This document shows, piece by piece, positions 8,684-53,710 of a stretch of 64,000 nucleotides of DNA. The translations under genes and the position numbers were made by a program. Source of the stretch: a virus. The stretch lies in the IMG/VR virus record IMGVR_UViG_3300035698_017437, positions 64,001-128,000 of that record. One strand, written 5' to 3'. Below the pieces are notes generated by a model that worked only from the letters and a program-made list of their open reading frames with translations, did not search any database and was not told where the DNA came from. Numbering within the stretch: position 1 is the stretch's first letter; each line of letters opens with the position of its first letter.

Positions 8684-8897
8684 ATCCTTAGACCTATAGT
8701 TAGAAATCAAATTTCATAAAGAAATACGACAAGGAGATAAATTGAGGTATCTGTTTGTTTTAGATAGGATTAAGAACCATTTAATCATTTGGGAATCGGA
8801 ATACAATAAGGACAGAAACAAATGTTTAGAAGATTTAATAATAACAATAAAGGAAATGAGAAATGAGATTGAGCCAAAATCCAGTAATAGAGAGTAA
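8664..8897 (+). pseudogene. degenerate Vsr/DUF559-like endonuclease between the intein halves
   Basis: one frame reads MILNPFKSLDL*LEIKFHKEIRQGDKLRYLFVLDRIKNHLIIWESEYNKD...; IIWESE is a Vsr-like C-terminal motif. Confidence 0.6.
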
Positions 8898-9519
8898 TGG
8901 AATACTTACATTAGACATAGAAACAGACGATACTCATACCTACCAATTGGCTAATGGATGTGTTAGTCATAACACGTCTTCTCTTCTTGTTGCTAGTTCA
9001 TCTGGTATTCATCCAAGAGAATCTTATTGGTATATCCGAAGAGTTCGCCAAGATAAAAAAGATCCTCTATCCATGTTGATGATTGATCAAGGAGTTCCCT
9101 ATGTAGATGATGGAGATAAATATATTTTCACTTTCTATATTGAATCTCCTTCACATTCAATAACTAAAGAGCAAATGGGCGCAATAGATCAATTGGAATT
9201 GTGGAAGATTTATGCTACTCATTGGACGGATCATAATGTTAGCCAGACTATATATTATACAGAAGATGAGTATTTTGCTGTTGCTGATTGGGTATGGAAA
9301 AATTGGGATATCATATGTGGATTGAGTTTCTTTCCATCTTCTGATCATATATATGAAAATGCTCCTTTAGAAACTATTACCAAAGAAGAATATGATAAAG
9401 CAATGGAAACCTATCCAATAATTGATTTTAGTAAATTAGTAAATTTTGAACATGAAGATAATACCAGTACCAATGAATTAGGAGTTGCCTGCACGGGCGG
9501 GACTTGTGAAGTACTCTAA
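8863..9519 (+). CDS. nrdJ: split-intein C half (37 aa) fused to ribonucleotide reductase C-terminal part
   Basis: TLDIETDDTHTYQLANGCVSHN|T then SSLL..SSGIHP, DHNVSQT, terminal ACTGGTCEV. Confidence 0.93.
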   Translation: MRLSQNPVIESNGILTLDIETDDTHTYQLANGCVSHNTSSLLVASSSGIHPRESYWYIRRVRQDKKDPLSMLMIDQGVPYVDDGDKYIFTFYIESPSHSITKEQMGAIDQLELWKIYATHWTDHNVSQTIYYTEDEYFAVADWVWKNWDIICGLSFFPSSDHIYENAPLETITKEEYDKAMETYPIIDFSKLVNFEHEDNTSTNELGVACTGGTCEVL

Positions 9520-14223: not shown

Positions 14224-14297
14224 GCCGGTATAGCTAAGTGGTTAAGCGCAAGATTTGTATTCTTGAAACGGGGGTTCGATTCCCTCTACCGGCTCCA
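14224..14297 (+). tRNA. tRNA-Thr(TGT)
   Basis: acceptor gccggta/taccggc, anticodon arm caaga-tttgtat-tcttg, GTTCGA, CCA. Confidence 0.9.
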
Positions 14298-14341
14298 ATA
14301 ACGAGGAGCTCAAATCCGAACGGAGGCTCCAAAACAATTAT

Positions 14342-14417
14342 AGATCTGTAACTCAGTGGATAGAGTAGATGCCTTCTAAGCATTTTGTCGGGAGTTCAAA
14401 TCTCTCCAGGTCTACCA
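14342..14417 (+). tRNA. tRNA-Arg(TCT)
   Basis: gatgc-cttctaa-gcatt, GTTCAAA, ACCA. Confidence 0.9.
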
Positions 14418-14426
14418 AGGATTAGT

Positions 14427-15496
14427 ATGAGTAAATGTTTATTCTATATGGCTCGACCCATTTCAGGAGTAGATGGAATACGGATGCTTTCCCATCTAAA
14501 AATTCTTGAAACAACAGCAGATGAAGTTTTCCATTTATCAAACACAAAGACGAACAAAGGCAAGGAAGTAATTGAATTCCACAGTGGATTAAGAATATCA
14601 AAATCAATCAACTATTTTGGTGAAGTATATACCAACGAGTTGAAACATCTTGATTCTTGGATGAATGTTTATAATGCTCTTGATGTATCTCCTTTAAAGA
14701 TATATATGATAAACTATTCATAATGGGAGGTATATGTTTTAGAAGTTCAGGATTTTGTAGAGGTGGTAAACGAGAAGATTCATTTCCTAATGATAAAGGT
14801 CAAATAAAATTTATCAGTCAAGGAACTCATTTTGTAAATATTCTCGCAATATTGAAAGCCCATAGGGAGTATGGAATTCCACTTCACGAATACTCTTATG
14901 ATACTGATGAGTTGCCTTGTTCATCTTTTCATCCTGATGTGTCACCAAAATTGAATTATTATCTATATTATGGACATTCAATAAAAGATTACGATATATC
15001 CCGTTTGGATTGTCACCAATATTATATGAAGAATAATAGGAAGAATACTATATTTGATGATATTCCTGAAAAGGTTCATGATCTAACTAGTGGATATACA
15101 AACATAAACGATACAAGAAATAGATATTCAGTTGAGCTAGATGATTTAGCATCAAATTGTAAAACGTCTAATATATACATAAGAGATAAAATTCAAGGAA
15201 TAGATACATTTCTTGATAAAGATCAATATAATCGGATGATTTCAGAATCCAGGTTTACTTTTATATTTCCTGCCTATGATCTTCATGTAATATCTATTGA
15301 TAGGATGCTTGGAGCTATACACCGAGACTGTCTACCTCTATTCCATAGTGAATGTGTCTTGACGGATGTAGAGGAATCGTTCGGTGTTGATCTAAAATAC
15401 TTAGTTAGAACAAAACTCTTATCTGAAGAGGACCGGTTAAGATGGTTGAATATATTGAAAGAAAAGTTTACTGCCTTTCGAATAGGATTCAAATAA
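14427..15496 (+). pseudogene. putative glycosyltransferase (possibly DNA-modifying), split by a 2-nt frameshift at an (AT)4 run
   Basis: ORFs 14427-14723 and 14723-15496 join as PLKIYDKLFIMGG if one AT is removed at 14700-14707; C-terminal SRFTFIFPAYD...DRM..AI..DCLPL is GT-B-like. Confidence 0.55.
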
Positions 15497-15510
15497 GGTG
15501 TATTTATATG

Positions 15511-15539
15511 TTGACAAGTAATATCCAATATGTTATAAT
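15511..15539 (+). promoter_or_regulatory. early sigma70 promoter for tRNA pair
   Basis: TTGACA-17-TATAAT. Confidence 0.85.
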
Positions 15540-15555
15540 AGAGTATACAGAATGA

Positions 15556-15627
15556 AGACCCGTAGTTCAGCGGTAGAACCTCACCCTTTGAAGGTGATTG
15601 TCGGATGTTCAAATCATCCCGGGTCTG
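15556..15627 (+). tRNA. tRNA-Gln(TTG)
   Basis: agacccg/cgggtct, tcacc-ctttgaa-ggtga; no encoded CCA. Confidence 0.88.
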
Positions 15628-15636
15628 AATATAATC

Positions 15637-15710
15637 GGGAGATTAGCTCAGTTGGTTAGAGCCGTGTTCTCATAAATCACAGGTCACTGGTTCAAATCCA
15701 GTATCTCCCA
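15637..15710 (+). tRNA. tRNA with CAT anticodon (Met or Ile2)
   Basis: gggagat/atctccc, loop ctcataa, GGTTCAAATCC. Confidence 0.85.
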
Positions 15711-16162
15711 AAATACTTTAGTTTCTTCATCAAAGGAATATTATGAAAGCTTATGGAGTTCCTAGAATAAAAGACGCCGAATGTCCTGATAAAGCGGATA
15801 TCAAACGTTTCGGGTATTCATCAACTGATCGTTGTTCCAGAAAAGATAGAGGCAAAAATACATCAAGACGGATATGGAAGAAAAAGTTCAGAGCAGATCA
15901 AAAGAAATTATGTAATTACAAAGAATTCCTTTAGGAATCACAATTTAACCTAAAAAGGAACCAAATGTTACATAAAATGAAAGTTGTACTTGATAACACA
16001 TCTAGTCCAAAAGTTTATAAAAGAACTAGATGGACACATTATGAGGGATATAAATTTATTTGTTGTATGTGTAAACCTCATAGAGGATGTAACAGAAAAA
16101 GAAATCCAAGCCTATCTTGGAAAGATCAAAGCAAAAAAAGAAATTCATGGGAGAAATAGAAT

Positions 16163-17254
16163 ATGAGAAAGTTAGCAACAATCAGAAGAATTGAAAATAT
16201 CCTGCCTATTCAAGGAGCTGATAGGATTGAAGTAGCTTATATTGATGGTTGGGAATGTGTTATCAAAAAAGATCAATTCATAGTAGGTGATTTCTGTGTT
16301 TATTTTGAAATTGATTCTATGCTTGATAAAGATAATCCCGTTTTTGAATTTATGGCTCAACGAAAGTTTAGAGTAAGAACTATCAAACTGAGAAAACAGA
16401 TTTCTCAGGGACTTGCTCTTGCTCTTGAGGATTTCCCTGAATTGAAAAATCCTATAGTTGGTGATGATGTAACCTCTCTACTGAAGATCACTAAACATGA
16501 TCCTCATGCACAAAGAGAGCGAAATCAACAGGTTAGCACTAGGAAGAAGCCTCCATTGCGCTGGATGCTCCGATTTGGTGTAGGACGATATCTACATCAA
16601 AAGATTTGGAACAGAGCTTCAGGATCATGGCCCGGACTTTTTCCCAAAACCGATGAAGAAAGAATTCAAAATCTTTCTCTATATAATCTTGAAAGTATTC
16701 TCAAAGATGAAGTGGTTGTTACAGAGAAATTGGACGGACAATCAGTATCAATTTTCTATGATAGAAAAGCAAAAACGGGATTCTTCAAACGAGGAGTTTT
16801 TGGAGTATGCTCTAGGAATATTTGGTATAAAAACCAAGCAAATAATAATTGGTGGAATATAGCAATCAAAGAAAACCTCCAATTGACTCTTCCTGAATAT
16901 TGTAATCAAGAAAAGATGTCGCTTGTCATTCAAGGAGAAATAGTAGGAGAGGGAATTCAAAAGAATAGATATAATCTGAAAGGACAACATCTATATGTTT
17001 TTTCTGTATATGATATTGAAAATCAGAAATATATTGATCCAAAAGATGAGACTTTATCTTTGGGTTTGACAAGAGTTCCAGATCTAGGAACTTGCGTCTT
17101 AGAACCAAATAAAAAACTTATCCTTGAATTCGCTGAAGGTAAATCTGTAGTTGGATCTAAATCTCTTAGAGAAGGAATTGTTATTCGTTCTGAGAAAGAT
17201 CAATCCAAATCATTCAAAGCTATTTCTAATAAATGGCTTCTCAAAAATGAATAA
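16163..17254 (+). CDS. ATP-dependent RNA ligase, Rnl2/DRB0094 family
   Basis: MRKLATI..I.PI.GAD.IE OB N-domain; TEKLDG, QGEIVG, REGIV, FKAIS ligase motifs. Confidence 0.93.
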   Translation: MRKLATIRRIENILPIQGADRIEVAYIDGWECVIKKDQFIVGDFCVYFEIDSMLDKDNPVFEFMAQRKFRVRTIKLRKQISQGLALALEDFPELKNPIVGDDVTSLLKITKHDPHAQRERNQQVSTRKKPPLRWMLRFGVGRYLHQKIWNRASGSWPGLFPKTDEERIQNLSLYNLESILKDEVVVTEKLDGQSVSIFYDRKAKTGFFKRGVFGVCSRNIWYKNQANNNWWNIAIKENLQLTLPEYCNQEKMSLVIQGEIVGEGIQKNRYNLKGQHLYVFSVYDIENQKYIDPKDETLSLGLTRVPDLGTCVLEPNKKLILEFAEGKSVVGSKSLREGIVIRSEKDQSKSFKAISNKWLLKNE

Positions 17255-17497
17255 TGTGTATACAAAATAAGAAACATATAATTCAAAAGGAGAGAGATAT
17301 GAAATTTGTTATCGGAATGAACGGAGCACCAAAAGCACCAAAAACCAAAGAAGAAGAAAAGTCTATTGAAGAAAGTATGGGATTCTTCATTAAATTTATC
17401 GCTTGGAGTATTGTCGGTATTGCTCTTATTGGAGCATTTCTTGTTTGTGTAGCTGATGTACAAAGTGAAAGCAATGTAACAAAAACAGAAATAAGTG

Positions 17498-17526
17498 TTG
17501 ACAAATGATTCTAAATATGTTATAAT
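17498..17526 (+). promoter_or_regulatory. sigma70 promoter, first of three in tandem (also 17639 and 17902), each followed by an RNA rather than an ORF
   Basis: TTGACA-17-TATAAT at 17498 and 17639; TTGACG-17-TATGTT at 17902. Confidence 0.8.
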
Positions 17527-17541
17527 TACATATACCAAATG

Positions 17542-17608
17542 AATAAGACTATAACAGTGAGTTAACCTTGTAAATGCCACCGTGCTCTAGGCACTGTTAT
17601 ATCTTGTT
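17542..17608 (+). ncRNA. candidate small RNA 1
   Basis: aataaga-c-tataacagtg pairs with cactgttata-tcttgtt; own promoter; no ORF. Confidence 0.5.
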
Positions 17609-17684
17609 TATATATACAAAATAAAATGAATTTAGTTGTTGACAAGTGATTCTAAATATGTTATAATTACATATATATCAAATT

Positions 17685-17792
17685 TTGTTGTGTTGTAAAA
17701 ACAAACCTCACACAGTATAAGCGGTGATAAGGTAGAGAATCGCCAAAGACATTATAGTCTTTGCTTGGAGAGAGCGATTTCCCACACAACAA
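17685..17792 (+). ncRNA. candidate small RNA 2
   Basis: nested stems ttgttgtgt/acacaacaa, aatcgc/gcgatt, caaagac/gtctttg; own promoter. Confidence 0.55.
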
Positions 17793-17799
17793 TAAACAT

Positions 17800-17882
17800 G
17801 GAGAGTTATACCGTAGGGGTAGCGGGATAGACTGTAAATCTATTGTCCTTTGGCTCGGGTGGTTCGACTCCACCACTCTCCA
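17800..17882 (+). tRNA. tRNA-Tyr(GTA)
   Basis: ggagagt/actctcc, ataga-ctgtaaa-tctat, variable arm, GGTTCGACTCC. Confidence 0.9.
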
Positions 17883-17940
17883 CTTAAAATTAATTTAGTT
17901 GTTGACGAGAAATAGAAAATATGTTATGTTTCTTTATAAT

Positions 17941-18106
17941 AATATGCTTTCTGTGGTCGGGTAGTCCCGTATGAACGTGTAGGATTTATCAATAGAGTAA
18001 GATGATCATCCTCTATAATTTGATAGGCAGCCTTGCTTCAGAGGCAGATCTTGAATTCGCTAAGAAACGGTTCAATGATGATCTGCCCGCACACCGAAAG
18101 CATATT
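17941..18106 (+). ncRNA. 6S-RNA-like structured RNA
   Basis: closing stem aatatgctttc/gaaagcatatt, cgggtag/ctgcccg, tgaac/gttca, plus 3' cttgaatt...ggttcaa element. Confidence 0.5.
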
Positions 18107-18111
18107 AGTAT

Positions 18112-18186
18112 GACCATATAATCCAACGGTTAGGATACGAGGTTTTCATCCTCGTAATCGGAGTTCAATTCTCCGTATGGTCACCA
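18112..18186 (+). tRNA. tRNA-Glu(TTC)
   Basis: gaccata/tatggtc, cgagg-ttttcat-cctcg, ACCA. Confidence 0.9.
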
Positions 18187-18197
18187 GATTGTAGATT

Positions 18198-18260
18198 AGA
18201 GATTTAGCTTATGTAAAGCGGGTATTTTGACAGATCTTGGTTCAACCCCAAGAATCTCCT
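18198..18260 (+). ncRNA. tRNA-like RNA lacking an anticodon arm
   Basis: acceptor gagatt/aatctc, D arm gctt-atgta-aagc, T arm cttgg-ttcaacc-ccaag, only about 15 nt between D and T arms. Confidence 0.55.
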
Positions 18261-18276
18261 TTCTACATACAATTAT

Positions 18277-18351
18277 TGCGGAGTAGAGTATTGGTAACTC
18301 TCTTGTCTCATAAGCAAGGATATGTTGGTTCAATTCCAACCTCCGCAACCA
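18277..18351 (+). tRNA. tRNA-Met(CAT)
   Basis: tgcggag/ctccgca, cttgt-ctcataa-gcaag, ACCA. Confidence 0.88.
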
Positions 18352-18361
18352 ATTTTTATAT

Positions 18362-18591
18362 CTCTCTATAGCTCAATAGGTAGAGCTTCTGAGGAATATT
18401 GAGTGTGAATTTTTGGGTTGCTCCTCAAATTCCTTCAATAATAATCAGAGCAAGTATTTCAATAATCCTACACTGGTCGGCAGATCATAACCTTGACCTC
18501 TTTTCTCTGGATAGCCATGGAACAAAGAGAAAAATTGTCATTGAAGTAGATTAGAGAAATCGTGAAGGTTCAAATCCTTCTAGAGAGACCA
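18362..18591 (+). ncRNA. 230-nt tRNA-like RNA with about 160 extra nt in the anticodon/variable region
   Basis: acceptor ctctcta/tagagag-ACCA, D arm tagctcaataggtagagc, T arm gaagg-ttcaaat-ccttc, two long internal hairpins. Confidence 0.7.
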
Positions 18592-18606
18592 ATTAGTTTT
18601 AAATGC

Positions 18607-18694
18607 TCCCGCCTGACAGAGTGGTAATGTGCCTGGCTGTTAACCAGAGACCTAGAGTAATCTAGCGGTTGTTCGACCCAACCGGCGGGAGCCA
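18607..18694 (+). tRNA. tRNA-Asn(GTT) with long variable arm
   Basis: tcccgcc/ggcggga-GCCA, ctgg-ctgttaa-ccag, V arm ctaga-gtaa-tctag. Confidence 0.85.
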
Positions 18695-18724
18695 ATTGTC
18701 CCACTAACTTTTAGAGAGAATAGA

Positions 18725-19009
18725 ATGACAAAACATTGGTGCGATGCTTGTGAAAGAGAGATAGTAGATAATAACTATAAGAATGTTGGAATACCTTGTC
18801 ATTTATATTCTATGAGTAGATCAGGAAATCTCCAGGGAGGGTATGTTGATAGGGAATTTCAACCAATATCAGGAAGAGATGATAATGTCCTTTTATGTCA
18901 TAAGTGTTTGAACAAAGGATGGTCGGCATTCTTGACTAAATTGGACTTAAATGGAGAGAAAAGGACAGAAACAGTTGAAACAGAGAGACTAAACGCCTTT
19001 ATTTATTAA
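18725..19009 (+). CDS. hypothetical protein with CxxC pairs
   Basis: CDAC...CHKC. Confidence 0.55.
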   Translation: MTKHWCDACEREIVDNNYKNVGIPCHLYSMSRSGNLQGGYVDREFQPISGRDDNVLLCHKCLNKGWSAFLTKLDLNGEKRTETVETERLNAFIY

Positions 19010-19019
19010 GAGTATATGT

Positions 19020-19095
19020 GCGCTTGTAGTCCAACGGCAGAGACAACAGGTTTAAGCCCTGTCCAGTGAAGGTTCAAATCCTTCCAGGCGTACCA
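19020..19095 (+). tRNA. tRNA-Leu(TAA), short variable loop
   Basis: acagg-tttaagc-cctgt, GGTTCAAATCC, ACCA. Confidence 0.85.
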
Positions 19096-19112
19096 AATAA
19101 TTATATTGACAA

Positions 19113-19199
19113 AGAAGATGCCGTCCGTTGGTGGACAGCTAGACTTGAAATCTGGTGGCGTGTTAGAAATAGCATGGGGTTCAACTCCCACATCTTCTT
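19113..19199 (+). tRNA. tRNA-Ser(TGA) on a SelC-like 8/4 scaffold
   Basis: 8-bp acceptor agaagatg/catcttct, ctaga-cttgaaa-tctgg, V arm cgtgtta-gaaa-tagcatg, short T stem. Confidence 0.75.
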
Positions 19200-19259
19200 C
19201 TTATAGAAAATAAATGTTGACAAATAAATGTTGACATATCATTTACAGGGAACTTTAAT

Positions 19260-19748
19260 ATGACGAATTTGCTTGAATTTATTCCTGAGGAACTTTTGGC
19301 TCCACATTCTATTGATGATAGATGGTATACTTCCAAATTTTATAATTTGAAGATTATGCCTTGTAGATCTATGGGTTGTAGGGGAGAAAAGATAGTTGAA
19401 TCAATATATTCCATTTTTGAAAGAGATGTATTGAAAGCATTGAATAAGGGACATGATAGACTAATTGATTCCAAGAAAGTTGAAATAAAAACCTCAATGG
19501 TAAGTAAAGGAAAGAAAGAGAAATATAGTTTCCTTCAAATCCGTCCTTCAGATGATTATGAAGTGATTATATTCTTTACTATCAATTATGATTCTTGTTC
19601 CTTTTATGAATTGACCAAAGAGGAAGTGCTGGAACGAATAGAGAATGGATTATTCAAACGTCAACATTTAGGAAAGAATGGAGATTCAGGCACCTTTTCA
19701 TATAATGGCACTATGGAGAATCTTGGTGCTAGGGAGATTGTTTTTTGA
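19260..19748 (+). CDS. putative type II restriction endonuclease (PD-(D/E)XK)
   Basis: GHDRLIDSKKVEIKTS, FLQIRP.DDY; overlaps the MTase start. Confidence 0.65.
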   Translation: MTNLLEFIPEELLAPHSIDDRWYTSKFYNLKIMPCRSMGCRGEKIVESIYSIFERDVLKALNKGHDRLIDSKKVEIKTSMVSKGKKEKYSFLQIRPSDDYEVIIFFTINYDSCSFYELTKEEVLERIENGLFKRQHLGKNGDSGTFSYNGTMENLGAREIVF

Positions 19749-20827
19749 GCAAAAGACATACTTCACAAGATTTTCAACAAGCCAATGGACAATATTATTC
19801 CTCTAATACCGGAACTCTCTTATCTGGTTTTGAGAATTTCCTTGATAATATGAATATCATTGAGCCTTTTGCTGGAAATAAAGATCTAATAAACTGGACT
19901 ATTGAAAATTGTGATAATGTTTCTTTTTCAATGTATGATCTATATCCAACTGATGAGTCAATAACAAAAAATGATTCAATAAAATATCCTCCTTATAAGG
20001 ATGAAAATGGTATAATATCAAATCCCCCTTATCTTTCAAAGAACAAAAGTAAAGATAAGGAAGTTTTTGATCAATGGAATCAAAGTGATTTATATAAATG
20101 CCATCTTGCTTCAATAGTTGATAGTAAAATAGAAGGGGGTATTCTAATACTTCCATCAAATTTTATAAGTGAAAGCAGATCAAAAATAAGAGATTTATTT
20201 TTCTCAAAATATAAGATAGAGATGATCAAATATTTCTCTTATCCAGTTTTTGATGATGCAACGACAGGAATTATATCTTTCTCTTTCTCTTTATGGAAGG
20301 AAAAAAATGTTATGATTATTCCTTTTCATTTATATTCCAGCGAAAATGTAGTAAAGGTCAAAGAATATTCTTTGATTAGGAAATATGGCTGGTTAGTAGG
20401 AAAGAATTTCTTTGATTATATTTTAGAAGATGATTATCCTTTGAAATTAGAAATGTTGGAAGAACAACCGCAATCTAATTCAAATATTGTTATCGGTTTA
20501 TTGACAAATGGTAAATATTGTTTGGGAGCCCATTATAACGAAAAGGAAGCAATACGATCTAATGGGAAAGCATTTACAACATATCAAATATTCCTGAATA
20601 ATGACCTTTATTTATCTGAAGACGACCAAAAAGCTATTATAAAAAGATACAATAAGGTATTGAATGGTTTTATTGAAGAATATTCAGGATTATTCCTTGC
20701 CAATTATATGGGAGCAAACCAGAAAATCAAGAGTAGAAAATACTCAAGCCTTTTATTGAGTAGATGTATAAAGGAAATAAAAGGTATATACAAAGAAAAA
20801 AACGATTTATCTGAATTTATGACTTGA
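19745..20827 (+). CDS. N6-adenine DNA methyltransferase (gamma-type motif order)
   Basis: GQYYS, IIEPFAG (motif I), IISNPPY (motif IV), ILILPSNF. Confidence 0.88.
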   Translation: MSKRHTSQDFQQANGQYYSSNTGTLLSGFENFLDNMNIIEPFAGNKDLINWTIENCDNVSFSMYDLYPTDESITKNDSIKYPPYKDENGIISNPPYLSKNKSKDKEVFDQWNQSDLYKCHLASIVDSKIEGGILILPSNFISESRSKIRDLFFSKYKIEMIKYFSYPVFDDATTGIISFSFSLWKEKNVMIIPFHLYSSENVVKVKEYSLIRKYGWLVGKNFFDYILEDDYPLKLEMLEEQPQSNSNIVIGLLTNGKYCLGAHYNEKEAIRSNGKAFTTYQIFLNNDLYLSEDDQKAIIKRYNKVLNGFIEEYSGLFLANYMGANQKIKSRKYSSLLLSRCIKEIKGIYKEKNDLSEFMT

Positions 20828-20902
20828 CTTCTGATTCTATACATGGTATAATAGTATATACAGAATGAGAAAGATACATAATTCAAAGTGGAGAAACCCA
20901 TG
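20824..20902 (+). promoter_or_regulatory. early promoter/leader cassette copy
   Basis: TTGACT-17-TATAAT...AATGAGAAAG...TAATTCAAAGTGGAG. Confidence 0.9.
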
Positions 20903-21271
20903 AGACTTTCAAAAACAAGTGATTATATTGAGATTGATGAAAATGAAGATGTTGAAATTCTGTTCCTTTCAGATGAAGAATGGCAATCAAGTTTGAGTAA
21001 TAAATCTGCTTTAGCTTCTGTAAAGGATGAGGTTGCCTTTGCTGTAATGTCTGAGGAAATAAAATATTCAAGAATATTCGTCAATATAGATAAAGTTTAT
21101 GGAGTAGATTATGAGGTTGTTATTGCCCATGAATATTCACATATTCTTTTTCATGAAGTAGATGAAGAGAAAACAGATAGAAATTGTTTTCAATTTCTGG
21201 TAGAGAGTGAAATTGGTTGGTTGAAAAGTCAATGGGAAATCCGTCATGGACATAAATTTGAGGAGATTTAG
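20900..21271 (+). CDS. HExxH protein (putative Zn metallopeptidase)
   Basis: VIAHEYSHIL...E..TD. Confidence 0.5.
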   Translation: MRLSKTSDYIEIDENEDVEILFLSDEEWQSSLSNKSALASVKDEVAFAVMSEEIKYSRIFVNIDKVYGVDYEVVIAHEYSHILFHEVDEEKTDRNCFQFLVESEIGWLKSQWEIRHGHKFEEI

Positions 21272-21499
21272 AATGTTTGAAAAAGAACCTAAAGGATCAA
21301 TGTTTTTCTATTCTGGAAACACAAACAGAAAAAATAATGAGAATTGGTTCCAGTTCTCAGGAATTTACCAATTACAGGAAAAAAGGAAAATTGAAGATGT
21401 TTTCTGTGACATAATCAAACTCAAAGAAGATGAACTGAAAGAACAAGTTGTCCTCACAAGCATGAATAAAATATAATAATATCTTTGGAGGATATTAAG

Positions 21500-22141
21500 A
21501 TGAGTGAAATTTCAATTACAAGAGCTTTAGTGAAAATCAAAACCCTTCGGTCTAAGATAGAAAAAGGATCAAAGGCAATGGCAGTTTGTTCAGGATATCA
21601 AATTCAGGGACAACCAATTATTACAAGAGCTGGTCAAGTAAAAAATGCTGATATTCTTCAAACAGATATTAGTAAACGATGGCAAGCTGTGAATGATTTG
21701 ATGGATCTATATATCAAAATTCGAGAGGAGATCCAGAAATCTAATGCCGTTACTTTAGTTACAGTTGGAAAAAATAAAATGACCGTAGCAAAAGCCATTT
21801 TCATGAAAGAATTAATCTCGGATGAACGAGTTCCCCTTGCCTCTGTTGTTCTGAAAGATATCAATAACTCTAAACTACTGGTTCAGAAAAGGATAGAGGA
21901 TAATGATGAACGACTAACCGAACTTATCAAAAGCTCATTTCAAGGGAAATCAACTAAAATCTCTGATTCTGAATTTGAAGCAATTGCCAAACCTTTCAAT
22001 AAGAATAACAAAGTTGAATTCATTGATCCTTTTGGTATGGAAACAAAAATTGAAAAGGTTATTAATCAAAATGAAGAATTCCTTGAGGATATTGATGTTG
22101 TGTTAAGTGAATCTAACGCAAAAACAACGATTGAAATATAA
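21500..22141 (+). CDS. coiled-coil protein, DIP1984-like
   Basis: ISITRALVKIKTL...IQKSNAVT.V...MTVAKAI...DVVLSESNAKTTIEI two-repeat helical pattern. Confidence 0.6.
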   Translation: MSEISITRALVKIKTLRSKIEKGSKAMAVCSGYQIQGQPIITRAGQVKNADILQTDISKRWQAVNDLMDLYIKIREEIQKSNAVTLVTVGKNKMTVAKAIFMKELISDERVPLASVVLKDINNSKLLVQKRIEDNDERLTELIKSSFQGKSTKISDSEFEAIAKPFNKNNKVEFIDPFGMETKIEKVINQNEEFLEDIDVVLSESNAKTTIEI

Positions 22142-22175
22142 GGGGAGTCATATCTAACAGATATAAATAAGTACA

Positions 22176-22476
22176 TAAAGTATTATATTGAAACTGACTA
22201 AAAAGATATTCTCCTCAAATTGGAATAAGAGGTTAACATAAATTCCGCAACTAATTGCCTCAAACGCAATCTATTGATACAGCCTATAAAGCTGAACCGT
22301 TTCTGTAAAGTTTACAAAATCAAAAGATTAATGTTCAACAATTAGCGAGAAAAGTTTATACAATTACACCAAGAAAAATTAGAGAATAAAGATTGATTGA
22401 ATCTTGTGTATGGGTTTAGTAGGAAATTAGAATATCACGTCCTCAGTCAGTACCATCAAGCTGATAGAATACTTTA
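22176..22476 (+). ncRNA. structured RNA of about 300 nt downstream of the coiled-coil gene
   Basis: nested long-range pairs taaagtatt/aatacttta, ctgact/agtcag, gatattct/agaatatc, actaa/ttagt; TATAAATA at 22162; no ORF. Confidence 0.7.
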
Positions 22477-22484
22477 CTTTTTAT

Positions 22485-22561
22485 GGCGCAATAGCCCAAT
22501 TGGCAGAGGCAATGGTTTTAGAAATCATGTGTTGTAGGTTCAACTCCTACTTGCGCTACCA
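22485..22561 (+). tRNA. tRNA-Leu(TAG), short variable loop
   Basis: ggcgcaa/ttgcgct, atggt-tttagaa-atcat, ACCA. Confidence 0.85.
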
Positions 22562-22577
22562 TAAATTATAAATAAGA

Positions 22578-22652
22578 GCGTTCTTAGTATAAAGGTTATT
22601 ATTCTTGGCTTCCACCCAGGAGATGAGGTTTCGAGATCCTCAGAACGCTCCA
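22578..22652 (+). tRNA. tRNA-Gly(TCC)
   Basis: gcgttct/agaacgc-TCCA, cttgg-cttccac-ccagg. Confidence 0.85.
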
Positions 22653-22662
22653 ATAGTTTTAT

Positions 22663-22730
22663 GTTCCTCAGGAGGCAGAGTCGATGACTTAATCATATTG
22701 TCGGAGATTCGAATCCTTCCTGAGGAACCA
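22663..22730 (+). ncRNA. degenerate tRNA-like element
   Basis: ttcctcagga/tcctgaggaa-CCA, TTCGAAT T-loop, shrunken atga-cttaa-tcat arm, no D stem. Confidence 0.5.
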
Positions 22731-22738
22731 AATTTTAT

Positions 22739-22814
22739 AGCGGGATAGAGCAGTTGGTAGCTTGCCAGCCTCATAAGCTGGAGGTCGGGAGTTCGAATCT
22801 CCCTCCCGCCACCA
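22739..22814 (+). tRNA. tRNA-Met(CAT), initiator-like
   Basis: A1:C72 mismatch, ccagc-ctcataa-gctgg, ACCA. Confidence 0.85.
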
Positions 22815-24561: not shown

Positions 24562-25224
24562 ATGAAAATGAAAAAGAAACTTGTTTATATTTCTAGTAGA
24601 TATCTCAACGGAAATCAGGCTGAAAATGTAGCTATCCAATTAGATATAGCACATAAGATTATGGATCTAGGTGGTATTCCAATTGTTCCTCATTTACATC
24701 ATTTCCTTCATATCCATAAACAACGTCCTTATGAAGAATGGACGGAAATGATGTTGAGATATATAGATACTGCTGATTGTGTATTTCATGTTCCATGTAT
24801 ATCCTCAAGAGTTGATAAAGAGATTTCTTATGCTAGAAAAAAGGATATTATGGTTTTTCATGATATCCTGTACCTTGAGCAATTTCTTCAGAGTCGTACA
24901 GGAAGAACGACTAAAATTCTTGAAGATGTCTTGGATATTGCTGATACAACGAAAGATGGTTTTATGTGTTTTTGTTGTAATACTATTGGTCATAGGAATG
25001 TGTTAATCTCTATGGCCAAGAAAATTGCTAGGTCAAAAGGTATCAATTTTCTATTAAAGGAAAATATTCTGAGAATAGGATCAACTATCATAGTTTTCAC
25101 TGTTGAATTGCGGACCTTAGATTCCTTCATTCAGCATGCTATGAGAATACCTAAATTTGGAGTTTGGAAGGATCATTGTAACATGTATGATTGGTTACCT
25201 CAGAATGGATGGATAGATAAATAA
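24562..25224 (+). CDS. DUF4406/nucleoside deoxyribosyltransferase-like N-domain protein
   Basis: VYISSRY..G...ENV, PIVPH, EI.YA. Confidence 0.45.
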   Translation: MKMKKKLVYISSRYLNGNQAENVAIQLDIAHKIMDLGGIPIVPHLHHFLHIHKQRPYEEWTEMMLRYIDTADCVFHVPCISSRVDKEISYARKKDIMVFHDILYLEQFLQSRTGRTTKILEDVLDIADTTKDGFMCFCCNTIGHRNVLISMAKKIARSKGINFLLKENILRIGSTIIVFTVELRTLDSFIQHAMRIPKFGVWKDHCNMYDWLPQNGWIDK

Positions 25225-26828: not shown

Positions 26829-27671
26829 AGTGGAGTTTGCGGTTCGCCTAAGATAACAAGAGAAGATTTCAAATTCATCTATAGAAACTGGATTGATATG
26901 ATTCGTCAAGAATATGAACCTTTCAAATATTCTTTGCTTACAGGTTCTTACTTTGATGAAACAAAACAACTCTTCGGTGATATTGATAATATATTTCTTG
27001 TTGAAGGAGATAATAAAAAACAATCCAAACTTGATTTCATTGAATGGCTGAAAACCATTCCTGAAGGAATTCTTGAACCTTTTGAGAATCCAAAACATCT
27101 TGGAAAACTCTGGTACAATTCTGGAGAAATCGTTTCTGTTCGTTTCCAAGGAGCTCAAATAGATAATATTTTCGCTTTATCTGAAAATGAAGCTAAATAC
27201 AAGAAAGCGTTCCTAGATATGGAAGCTCCTAAACAAGGACTAATTCTAGGACTTATCAAGACTATTTTGCTTGAACTTCCTGTGAGACAAACATTACATG
27301 ATATGGCTATTATTGTTGCTCCATTGAATGAAAATTGGGAATATGAATTTAATATTTCTCCTTGTGAACTTCAATTGAGAAAAGTTCATATGGATTATGT
27401 GACAATGAAAACAATCCATAGTGAAATTGTTTGGAGGAGTAAAGATTGGAATTATGTACTAGGGCTCCTAAAGGATTATGCTATTCAAAATAAATCTTTT
27501 GAATCTCTTTTGACTCTTTCCGGAGACTTGATAAAAAAGGAAAGAAGCCGTAAAAGAATCATAGGACTGTTTCAAGCAATGATCACCATTAAAAGTGGTG
27601 AGGTTGGAACACCTAAAGGACAACGCAAAACAGATACTCTACAAATGATCAAGGATAAATTTGAAAAATAA
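26826..27671 (+). CDS. Pol-beta superfamily nucleotidyltransferase
   Basis: LTGSY......FGDIDNI, AQIDN. Confidence 0.7.
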   Translation: MSGVCGSPKITREDFKFIYRNWIDMIRQEYEPFKYSLLTGSYFDETKQLFGDIDNIFLVEGDNKKQSKLDFIEWLKTIPEGILEPFENPKHLGKLWYNSGEIVSVRFQGAQIDNIFALSENEAKYKKAFLDMEAPKQGLILGLIKTILLELPVRQTLHDMAIIVAPLNENWEYEFNISPCELQLRKVHMDYVTMKTIHSEIVWRSKDWNYVLGLLKDYAIQNKSFESLLTLSGDLIKKERSRKRIIGLFQAMITIKSGEVGTPKGQRKTDTLQMIKDKFEK

Positions 27672-28146
27672 AATAGGAATTTATTTAGGAAGGTTTCAGC
27701 CTCCTACAAAAGCACATTTAGCAATAATCAAACAAATGTCTGGTGATGGTCCAGGAACAGTTTATATTGTAGAAGGTAAGAAATCTAATCCTAAAAAGAA
27801 TCCATGGACAGGAAAAGAAAGAAAAGATCTTCTGAAAAAGATGTTGCCATCAAATATCAAAGTTGAAATAGTTCCAACAGGTTTCTATCCAGGTATATGT
27901 AACAAATCCAAACATAATGATTTTGCTTTGTATTGCGGTTCTGATAGAATTGCTACATATGAAAAACAAGAACAATATCTAGAACCTGGTAAAACCATTA
28001 GCTATAGAGAGGTAAAGCGAACTGATGAAGATATAAGTGCTACAAGACTTAGAAGAGCACTCCAGAGTGATAATGAAAAAGTGTTCAGAGAAATGGCTCC
28101 TAAAGAAATATGGGACCAATATGAAACAATGAAGGGTAAATACTAG
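27661..28146 (+). CDS. HxGH-type cytidylyl/adenylyltransferase-like protein
   Basis: GRFQPPTKAH, KNP, GSDR, ISATRLR. Confidence 0.85.
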   Translation: MKNKIGIYLGRFQPPTKAHLAIIKQMSGDGPGTVYIVEGKKSNPKKNPWTGKERKDLLKKMLPSNIKVEIVPTGFYPGICNKSKHNDFALYCGSDRIATYEKQEQYLEPGKTISYREVKRTDEDISATRLRRALQSDNEKVFREMAPKEIWDQYETMKGKY

Positions 28147-52558: not shown

Positions 52559-53710
52559 GTGCTGTTGATGGAAGTATTCAATAATGAAATAAAACCAATA
52601 AAATCTTGGGCAAAAGATCTTGAAAAGGGAGCTCTTGAGCAAGCTAAAAATTTAGCAAATCTTCCTTTTGTGTTCAAGCATGTTGCTATTATGCCAGATT
52701 CCCATCAAGGATATGGTGCTCCCATCGGAGCAGTAGTAGCAACCGAGAATGTAGTAGTTCCTAATATTTGTGGAGTGGATATCGGATGTGGGGTTCTAGC
52801 TTGTAAAACTCTCCTAAAAAATCCTTCTATGAAACGTATTATTGAATGGAAAAAAGAAATTCAAAATTCTATTCCATTGGGATTCAATTCTCATAAAGAA
52901 CCTCAAGAATTTTGGTATGACAATGATACATATGATTTTGATAATCTTCCAATTGTCTCAAGAGAAATGGAAAAGGCTTCCTACTCTTTAGGTTCGCTGG
53001 GATCAGGCAATCATTTTCTGGAATTACAAAAAGATGGAGAAGGTTACCTTTGGGTTATGATTCATTCTGGATCCAGAAATATTGGATATCAAGTAGCAAA
53101 ACATTACAATGATGTTGCGAAAGATTTGAATAAAAGATGGTTTTCTTCAGTACCTAAAGAACATGATTTGGCTTTCCTTCCTCTTGATACAGATCTTGGA
53201 AAAAGATATATGAAGGAAATGGAATATTGTGTTGATTATGCTTCTGTGAACAGAGAAAGGATGTTTAAGGTTATTATAAATATTCTTCAATGTTTTCATA
53301 ATGCTCCTATAAACATTGCCCATAATTATGCGGCATTAGAAAATCATTATGGAAAGAATGTTGTTGTTCATAGAAAAGGAGCTACAAGAGCATATAAGGA
53401 TCAATTAGGTGTTATTCCAGGATCTCAAGGAACATCTTCATTCATTGTTAGAGGATTAGGGAATAAAGAATCTTTTTCATCTTGTTCTCATGGAGCTGGA
53501 AGAAAATTGGGTCGTAAGGCTGCCATAAGAGAATTAGATGTAAAGGTAGAGCAAGAAAAAATGGAAGGTATTCTTCATTCTATAGTAGGAACTAAACAGC
53601 TTGATGAGGCACCTGGAGCCTATAAAGATATATATGAAGTTATGAAGAACCAAAAAGATTTAGTGGAAATTGTAACTGAACTAAAACCTCTTGCCGTGGT
53701 GAAAGGATGA
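52559..53710 (+). CDS. rtcB: RtcB RNA 3'-phosphate ligase
   Basis: MPDSHQG, GVDIGCG, GSGNHFLE, HSGSR, HNY, HRKGA, HGAGR, DEAP.AYK. Confidence 0.96.
   Translation: MLLMEVFNNEIKPIKSWAKDLEKGALEQAKNLANLPFVFKHVAIMPDSHQGYGAPIGAVVATENVVVPNICGVDIGCGVLACKTLLKNPSMKRIIEWKKEIQNSIPLGFNSHKEPQEFWYDNDTYDFDNLPIVSREMEKASYSLGSLGSGNHFLELQKDGEGYLWVMIHSGSRNIGYQVAKHYNDVAKDLNKRWFSSVPKEHDLAFLPLDTDLGKRYMKEMEYCVDYASVNRERMFKVIINILQCFHNAPINIAHNYAALENHYGKNVVVHRKGATRAYKDQLGVIPGSQGTSSFIVRGLGNKESFSSCSHGAGRKLGRKAAIRELDVKVEQEKMEGILHSIVGTKQLDEAPGAYKDIYEVMKNQKDLVEIVTELKPLAVVKG

Follow-up and report, generated by a model that had tools for sequence, protein, structure and literature searches.

In the tRNA gene cluster of a phage, we found a 230-nt gene (positions 18362-18591, + strand) that has the frame of a tRNA and lacks an anticodon arm: it encodes none, and no single excision restores one. 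The window that we analyzed is a 64,000-nt stretch (positions 64,001 to 128,000) of IMG/VR record IMGVR_UViG_3300035698_017437, which is 141,960 bp long, has a G+C content of 32.7%, and is estimated to be 78% complete. The element is a real tRNA-shaped gene and not a simple intron-bearing tRNA, and it is best filed with the small stable RNAs that are encoded in the tRNA operons of phages. Because there is no anticodon arm, the predicted RNA most likely cannot read codons. The best explanation that we can offer, and we offer it tentatively, is that the gene would encode a nondecoding stable RNA of ~230 nt built on a tRNA scaffold, of the same kind as T4 rnaC. The transcription, processing, and stability of such an RNA, and any function that it may have, are what we infer from this arrangement.

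The two ends of the element are those of a tRNA, and the canonical acceptor stem with ACCA, the D arm, and the T arm that the first-pass annotation had described are all in place. The acceptor stem begins at C1 with the 5' strand CTCTCTA (18362..18368), which forms 7/7 Watson-Crick pairs with the 3' strand TAGAGAG (18581-18587). The 3' strand is followed by A73 and an encoded CCA (ACCA, 18588-18591), so that the whole 3' unit occupies 18581..18591. U8 and A9, followed by the D arm, GCTC-AATAGGTA-GAGC, lie at 18369..18386, with the D arm itself at 18371-18386; its stem is 4 bp, its loop is 8 nt, and A14, A15, G18, G19, and A21 are present. The T arm, GAAGG-TTCAAAT-CCTTC (18564..18580), has 5/5 Watson-Crick pairs in its stem and a canonical loop (T54, U55, C56, and A58). 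In these three arms together, 16 of 16 stem pairs are of the Watson-Crick type (acceptor, 7/7; D, 4/4; T, 5/5). Between the D and T arms are U26 and, in the minimum free energy (MFE) fold, an irregular hairpin of 62 nt where the anticodon arm would be (18387..18449), followed by a 114-nt segment in the position of the variable region (18450..18563), the structure of which is not significant. This segment ends in ...ATCGT, and its last U is usable as U48, which can pair with A15. All of these features are on the + strand. The tRNA frame exceeds chance: the probability of a 7/7 Watson-Crick acceptor stem across 230 nt is ~6e-5, and the canonical D and T arms come in addition to this.

The frame was recovered both by ARAGORN with introns allowed and by our own frame scanner. 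It was not called by ARAGORN at default settings, and it was not listed by the Rfam tRNA model (RF00005) at the gathering threshold of 29 bits; the sole RF00005 overlap with the element was a 14.1-bit partial match at 18505-18588. Two other public assemblies, one contig from ENA and one from Logan (L056 and L057), are 100% identical to the window over 18261-19730. Therefore, the element is not an assembly artifact or a chimera. The 5' 22-mer, consisting of the D arm, U26, and TCTGA, had one exact match among 185,579 species genomes. This match is in a bacterial tRNA-Thr(UGU) gene, an ordinary tRNA gene that does not reveal the ancestor of the element.

The T arm is the only place in 18362-18591 where a 5-bp stem closes a 7-nt loop with U33 and R37. 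We used two excision tests on the element. The strict test asks for a single uninterrupted excision, located between the D and T arms, after which there remain a stem of 5 bp, a loop of 7 nt in which U33 and R37 are present, and a variable loop of 4 to 5 nt; in the relaxed test, 4/5 stem pairs suffice and the variable loop may be 3 to 25 nt. No single excision restored an anticodon arm in the element (0 strict and 0 relaxed solutions). The strict test had a false-positive rate of 1.9% on shuffled inserts, and the tRNA-Lys(UUU) gene of viral contig L042 passed it: its 244-nt insert is a group I intron (Intron_gpI, 70.9 bits), and the excised product has the loop CUUUUAA. Our frame scanner, which requires a T arm, a 7/7 acceptor stem, and a D arm, was run over ~1.7 Mb of phage loci and returned 17 oversized tRNA-like candidates of 106 to 389 nt (~15 distinct genes), in every one of which the acceptor, D, and T arms are perfect. 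The excision test was passed by 9 of the 17, and these were typed as canonical tRNAs; several of the passing genes of 111 to 146 nt scored 45 to 54 bits with the Rfam tRNA model. For the element itself, the intron mode of ARAGORN proposed a tRNA-Tyr(ata) with a 151-nt intron and the loop GG-ATA-GA, a model that is not believable because U33 is absent and the variable loop is 8 nt. Since no single excision is a solution, simple insertion into a tRNA gene is excluded, and the element lies outside the single-intron "enigmatic" class known from Lak megaphages. The element shows that oversized genes of this sort need not be intron-bearing tRNAs: the handle is perfect, and the decoding arm is gone.

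We then compared the folding of the inner segments with that of shuffled sequences. The whole element has an MFE of -60.3 kcal/mol (z -2.1), and 4/200 shuffles were as stable. The first-pass annotation had spoken of hugely extended inner arms, namely a hairpin of ~64 nt in the anticodon position and a branched arm in the variable position. The hairpin is present, with a length of 62 nt (18388-18449, TCTGA...TCAGA) and an MFE of -17.5 kcal/mol (z -2.5; 3/300 shuffles as stable). This is modestly above chance, and the hairpin is the sole inner part that is statistically supported as structure. It pairs TCTGA with TCAGA, TATTGA with TCAATA, and GAATTT with AAATTC around a 4x4 internal loop (GGAA/ATAA), and its 14-nt tip includes TTTGGGT at 18412-18418. 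The branched arm fared less well: its two helices, tatttcaa/ttgaagta and ttttctct/agagaaaa, do occur in the MFE fold, but the stability of the 113- to 114-nt segment is not above chance (z -0.7; 65/300 shuffles as stable). "Hugely extended" was therefore an overstatement, as the statistics back the hairpin alone.

The G+C content is 32% in the inner part of the hairpin and 38% in the 114-nt segment. For the insert as a whole (about 170 nt) it is 36%, compared with 33% for the genome and 43 to 59% for the tRNAs. No Rfam family matched the 114-nt segment at an E value of <=10, and the insert has no second copy in the genome, where only AT-rich 12- to 16-mers of it recur. One frame is open across the insert, earlier put at about 53 codons and suspected to be open by chance. 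We count 51 to 52 codons with TTG as the only start, neither an ATG nor a visible ribosome site, and a nondescript product, and we rejected a protein-coding insert; by our own estimate, ~1/20 frames would stay open for 51 to 52 codons at the G+C content of the insert.

The element belongs to an array of 13 ordinary tRNA genes, all on the + strand (14224-22814), with small open reading frames (ORFs) between them. It lies between tRNA-Met (18277-18351) and a long-armed tRNA-Asn(GUU) (18607-18694), from which it is separated by spacers of 10 nt and 15 nt, respectively, and the tRNAs adjoining it also encode CCA. Two consensus sigma-70 promoters on the + strand (17498-17526 and 17639-17667; TTGACA-17-TATAAT with a TG extension, 12/12 matches) precede the subcluster Tyr-Glu-(armless)-Met-(giant)-Asn, in which the armless member is a defective-looking tRNA-like stretch at 18198-18260, ~100 nt upstream of the element. 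No terminator-like site was found on the + strand inside the element. The natural expectation is that a bacterial host would transcribe the element together with the tRNAs on either side of it; that the host is bacterial is indicated by the perfect sigma-70 promoters and the encoded CCA. The phage also encodes two RNA ligases. A DraRnl/TIGR02306-type ligase gene is within the tRNA cluster (16163..17254, +; PF21189 OB domain plus PF09414), and a homologue of it is labeled as TIGR02306 family by its source. An RtcB-type ligase gene is at 52559..53710 (+; phrog_1075, E value of 8e-119), with ~40% identity to RtcB genes in many phages. The gene just downstream (18725-19009) belongs to a conserved small zinc-ribbon family.

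A homologue search, which the first-pass annotation had named as a check on its reading, left the insert without a homologue in any set searched. By blastn against 50,697 phage records, only the flanking tRNAs matched, and blastn and nhmmer against 46, later about 170, phage loci (~1.8 Mb) likewise gave no homologue of the insert. An exact 24-mer of the insert was absent from the viral contigs searched, and a D-arm-gap-T-arm pattern retrieved no insert homologue from metagenome contigs; a degenerate D-arm/T-loop pattern mostly retrieved adjacent normal tRNAs from viral contigs. Five neighboring or kin-specific proteins, searched against viral contigs, led to no kin with a tRNA cluster, and the relatives of the RNA ligase (<=55% identity) were in podophage-like contigs of about 60 kb, from phages unrelated to this one, without tRNA arrays. 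By these searches the phage appears to be an orphan, with a sole distant relative that was found through the zinc-ribbon protein.

This relative, G001 (IMGVR_UViG_3300028042_000001; 157 kb), has in common with our phage the zinc-ribbon gene and RtcB (~50% identity). Its cluster of 25 tRNAs holds a 176-nt gene of like design, in which the acceptor, D, and T arms are perfect and the 127-nt insert (19% G+C) has two long hairpins (z -2.7). No strict excision solution exists for the 176-nt gene, and its insert cannot be aligned with that of the 230-nt element. Oversized or armless genes were found elsewhere as well. A 110-nt tRNA-like gene without an anticodon is ~90% conserved between two other phages, and the changes in its T stem are compensatory. 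A T5-like isolate has unannotated oversized tRNA-like stretches, and its gene order, Tyr-Glu...Asn(83 nt), recalls that of the cluster described here. Phage tRNA genes at three loci (L137, L111, and L127) carry inserts of 45 to 56 nt at or before position 31/32.

Some features of the element recall tRNA-Pro, a tRNA that is missing from the 13 of this phage. C1-G72 together with A73 is common to the element and the tRNA-Pro genes of the T5-like phage and G001, and the hairpin tip UUUGGGU (18412-18418) is the loop of tRNA-Pro(UGG). These features could come from descent from a tRNA-Pro gene or from mimicry of one, and they could equally be a coincidence. Two further resemblances were given no weight: the 3' half of the element and the T5-like tRNA-Pro are identical at best at 22/33 positions, and "AAUCAGAGCAAG" resembles a "CAGCAA" motif common to three L137 tRNA inserts.

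Known elements were compared with the gene one at a time. Rfam, at an E value of <=10 over 18200-18750, returned no intron, ribozyme, tmRNA, or Y RNA, save for a 20-bit match to YrlA/Y RNA (RF02553; gathering threshold, 69) at 18305-18412, which we rejected, as it only runs from the T arm of the upstream tRNA into the D arm of the element. The group I model Intron_gpI had no match at this threshold, while the same tool gives the positive control, the L042 intron, 70.9 bits; the insert (151 to 177 nt) is indeed short for a group I intron, as had been pointed out, the smallest self-splicing one that we know of being about 205 nt. An intron of the BHB/EndA type was rejected too. There were 8 loose BHB-like matches versus 3.6 in shuffles, none at a junction that would rebuild a tRNA, and the splicing endonuclease family PF01974 had no match at an E value of <=1 in the 142-kb record (78% complete). 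The element is not a tmRNA, since ARAGORN -m and Rfam found none, it has a complete D stem, and it carries C-G at 3:70; the absence of G3:U70 had been seen at the outset. TGGTCGG...CTTGACC at 18475-18497 resembles what we take to be both strands of the Ro60-binding helix of Y RNA, and no gene for TROVE/Ro60, the usual protein partner of Y RNA, was found in the record. Theta (minimal HDV-like) ribozymes occur next to phage tRNAs and have a nested P1/P1.1/P2/P3 fold, the core ACC-T-CC-NCGY-GGT, and a catalytic C in J4/2 (PMC10879173). Our scan, for which we derived a regular expression with pairing checks from the published examples and which is less sensitive than the RNArobo descriptor of those authors, found 0 sites when both genome strands were covered, and the element does not contain the core motif.

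How might such a gene be expressed and used? If the element encodes a scaffolded RNA, it would be transcribed together with its neighbors from the sigma-70 promoters at 17498-17667, RNase P would cut at C1, and the 3' end would be trimmed to the encoded ACCA. Since the acceptor stem, T arm, and D-arm elbow match those found in a normal tRNA, the element would be excised as a tRNA is. The tRNA top half would then be a handle for processing and stability and perhaps also a binding surface for proteins that recognize the elbow or the CCA end, with the anticodon arm substituted by the 62-nt irregular hairpin and the loosely structured 114-nt stretch. As to function, our guess, made by analogy, is that the RNA may act as a decoy or sponge and occupy a host factor with affinity for the top half of tRNAs, or that it may be a small RNA carried on a tRNA scaffold.

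Several observations bear on the scaffolded RNA. The pristine top half and obliterated decoding arm suggest it, as neutral decay would need at least two events to reach the same state, and a pristine top half with a lost decoding arm is the outcome expected from selection on the top half alone. The recurrence of the design, in the 176-nt gene of G001, in the 110-nt gene of two phages, and in T4 rnaC, supports the same reading, as does the placement of the element on the same strand as the 13 tRNAs, with 10- and 15-nt spacers, two 12/12 promoters, and no internal terminator. Against it, the composition of the insert is like that of ordinary phage DNA, and over two thirds of its length the folding is not better than that of shuffled sequences. 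A tRNA gene that was functional until recently would also retain an intact top half after one replacement event, the second defective-looking stretch (18198-18260) would fit local decay, and the lack of an insert homologue in the sets searched counts against the scaffold as well. The likeness to T4 RNA C and D that the first-pass annotation had put forward is, on balance, the candidate reading that best survived our tests.

A pseudogene is a possible rival, which we hold to be somewhat unlikely. The anticodon arm of a former tRNA would have been destroyed recently, by an insertion plus a deletion or by illegitimate recombination, and the product would have no function, even if the RNA were perhaps still made and trimmed. 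Such an origin would fit the genome-like G+C content of the insert (36%), the lack of significant structure in its 114-nt part, and the failure of any set searched to yield a homologue of it. It would also fit the armless tRNA-like stretch in the same cluster and the odd or oversized tRNA-like stretches that are common in phage tRNA arrays, the T5-like isolate included. However, a simple insertion is excluded by the finding that no single excision restores a tRNA, and the 59-nt top half is damaged at 0/16 stem pairs and 0/~12 conserved tertiary positions. Dead DNA is usually lost fast from phage genomes, yet 166 nt have been kept here in a tightly spaced operon, and a like layout is found independently in G001.

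We regard it as distinctly unlikely that the element is a decoding tRNA-Ile(AAU) interrupted twice by sequences like the "enigmatic" introns, with the cuts resealed by the phage RNA ligases. A tRNA with a ligase-resealed intron had been suggested from the start; the two ligases are indeed encoded (RtcB and the DraRnl type), but no single excision gives an anticodon arm. Two excisions do give one. Removal of 18393-18437 (45 nt) and of ~109 nt in the variable region leaves 76 nt, which ARAGORN at default settings calls tRNA-Ile(AAU), with the cut between positions 31 and 32 and the loop AUAAUAA. A loop and 3' stem that match TCTGA occur by chance in 16% of shuffles, however, and two precise cuts would be required, for which no endonuclease, ribozyme, or BHB motif was found. 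A tRNA-Ile with A34 is not the normal bacterial form, which further argues against this product. The 45- to 56-nt inserts of L137, L111, and L127 at or before 31/32 are consistent with the first of the two excisions, while a 109-nt insert in the variable loop has no parallel among the resolved cases. In favor of a decoding product, neither tRNA-Ile(GAU) nor tRNA-Ile(AAU) is among the 13 tRNAs of the phage, and the introns of phage tRNAs have been called unexplained (10.1101/356790).

It is highly improbable that a known element (a small group I intron, a self-cleaving ribozyme, a tmRNA- or Y-RNA-like module, or a 51-codon gene) is hidden in the insert: the encoded RNA ligases, the presumed likeness of 18475-18497 to the Ro60-binding helix, and the open frame speak for it, and against it are the lack of Rfam matches at an E value of <=10 save for the YrlA artifact, an insert below the group I minimum known to us, the lack of a tmRNA call with C-G at 3:70, the failure to find TROVE/Ro60 and EndA genes in the record or the theta motif in the genome, and an ORF with TTG as its only start and no visible ribosome site. 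A small remainder of probability is assigned to none of these readings.

To our knowledge, annotation tools pass over the oversized tRNA-like genes of phages, and no explanation for such genes has been given since T4 yielded its species 1 and 2 RNAs in the 1970s. Phage tRNAs are now known as weapons against host defenses that cleave tRNAs. If the scaffolded RNA that we favor is functional, it would be the equivalent in nature of the engineered tRNA scaffold and could represent a new layer of phage counterdefense; if the element is wreckage, it would record how fast phage tRNA arrays turn over. In either case, the excision test sorts intron-bearing from unresolvable tRNA-like genes and is applicable at scale. 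A broader version of the scaffold reading, which we think improbable, is that phages with large tRNA clusters keep "top-half" tRNA mimics, with a selected top half and fast-evolving, unrelated cargo. Such mimics would act in the conflict between phage and host over tRNA, for example by soaking up host toxins or enzymes that recognize the elbow or the CCA end, and the tip UUUGGGU, C1-G72, and A73 of the element would make it a tRNA-Pro look-alike on a long stalk.

Among known systems, the element is closest in kind to rnaC (species 1, 139 nt) and rnaD (species 2, 119 nt) of T4. Both are genes for stable RNAs other than tRNAs that abut tRNA genes in a phage tRNA operon, and they are annotated only as "small, stable RNA." The element is likewise predicted to be nondecoding, has tRNA-like ends, and is inside a phage tRNA operon. 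In our analysis, the fold of rnaC consists of an acceptor-like stem and a canonical T arm (CCGGG-UUCGAAU-CCCGG), with two long hairpins where the other arms would be (z -4.6). The T4 genes are about half the size of the element, and no sequence similarity to it was seen, the blastn comparison of the locus with 50,697 phage records having matched only at flanking tRNAs. A canonical D arm is missing from rnaC, and a tRNA frame is not evident in rnaD, whereas the element keeps its D arm, T arm, acceptor stem, and CCA. The accumulation of the T4 RNAs is known from experiments, while the 230-nt RNA is predicted.

The tRNA genes of Lak megaphages carry introns that have been called "enigmatic" and are unexplained (Devoto et al., preprint 10.1101/356790). 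These genes and the insert-bearing tRNA genes that we found in viral contigs are, like the element, oversized, placed in phage tRNA arrays, and skipped by standard finders, and they have no known mechanism of insert removal. In such cases, one excision yields a canonical tRNA (9/17 of our candidates), whereas none does so in the element. The group I tRNA-Lys(UUU) of L042 also resembles the element in having a large insert in the anticodon region, an intact frame, and an encoded ACCA. Its 244-nt insert matches Intron_gpI; the insert of the element is too short, has no such match, and leaves no anticodon loop.

YrlA/Y RNAs and tmRNA are nondecoding RNAs that keep the tRNA elbow or the acceptor-T arm and have their anticodon arms replaced. 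YrlA is circularly permuted and has its ends in the long stem, whereas the element has them in the acceptor stem. In a tmRNA, the tRNA domain is tRNA-Ala-like with G3:U70, a D stem is absent, and there is an internal tag reading frame, whereas the element has a D stem and C3-G70. [quoted passage not shown] That scaffold is a laboratory construct, and it speaks to whether the processing logic works in bacteria, which it does, rather than to the use of this logic by the element. The chimera is processed and stabilized in the manner of a tRNA, and its architecture is that of the element.

Further tRNA-like genes were found in other phages. A second giant one, of 176 nt, lies at bases 98862-99037 of IMGVR_UViG_3300028042_000001 (8862-9037 of locus L204), the genome of a distant relative of the window's phage. 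It has a perfect acceptor and perfect D and T arms; the 127-nt insert, at 19% G+C, contains two long hairpins. No clean excision solution, that is, a single contiguous cut between the D and T arms that restores an anticodon arm, was found for this gene, and CCA is not encoded. A 110-nt tRNA-like gene is present in the phage contigs L012 (12338-12447), L013 (identical) and L023 (6651-6761). In this gene, which is conserved at ~90% between two phage contigs, two hairpins, one long and the other capped by a GUUA tetraloop, take the place of the anticodon arm, and the T stem carries compensatory changes. At a distance of 4-5 kb is an RNA ligase gene whose family also includes the ligase at 16163-17254 of the window.

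The latter, of the DraRnl/TIGR02306 type and inside the tRNA cluster, is one of two RNA ligases encoded by the window's phage; the other is RtcB (52559-53710). The DraRnl/TIGR02306-type family has been reported to be enriched 140-fold in theta-ribozyme phages (PMC10879173). Despite this ligase, our motif scan of the whole phage genome, both strands, found no theta motif.

In viral contig L137, three tRNA genes were also observed to contain inserts (reverse strand; numbered on the reversed locus, 1445-1564, 1895-2011 and 2018-2143). Each has one of 45-56 nt on the 5' side of the anticodon loop, and the three inserts are built alike: a hairpin, then (A)CAGCAA(U/A). They appear to form a family of intervening sequences sharing one recognition module. 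Separately, a pattern scan yielded viral contig L142 (8171-8578 and 11150-11553), in which a GOLLD RNA (314 bits) and a tmRNA lie beside a large tRNA array.

In the window's own cluster, the interval from tRNA-Glu to tRNA-Met contains a short stretch that is tRNA-like (18187-18276, core 18198-18260). It combines a T arm (CTTGG-TTCAACC-CCAAG) with a D-like hairpin and an acceptor-like stem but lacks both an anticodon arm and CCA. The stem is lengthened by flanking TGTAGA/TCTACA, and the fold z is only -1.6. Also inside the cluster is a 94-aa ORF (18725-19009) from a conserved family of small zinc-ribbon-like proteins. C6, C9, H26, C58 and C61 are invariant in this family, for which 63 representatives were counted at E<=0.001. 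The ORF had no Pfam or PHROG match.

Upstream of tRNA-Tyr, two sigma-70 promoters are predicted within 170 nt (17498-17526 and 17639-17667), each matching the consensus at 12/12 positions with a TG extension. Promoters of such T5-style strength point to a host whose sigma-70 recognition is canonical. The tRNA-Asn(GUU) (18607-18694; 88 nt, Rfam 34.5 bits) has G73 and a long variable arm. Since a T5-like isolate also carries an 83-nt tRNA-Asn(GTT), such phage tRNA clusters appear to feature a type-II-like tRNA-Asn. Finally, Escherichia phage vB_EcoS_HASG4 (L206), which is T5-like and in culture, has two unannotated, oversized tRNA-like stretches in its tRNA region, of 120 nt (24893-25012) and 131 nt (27577-27707), both with acceptor and T-arm pairing.
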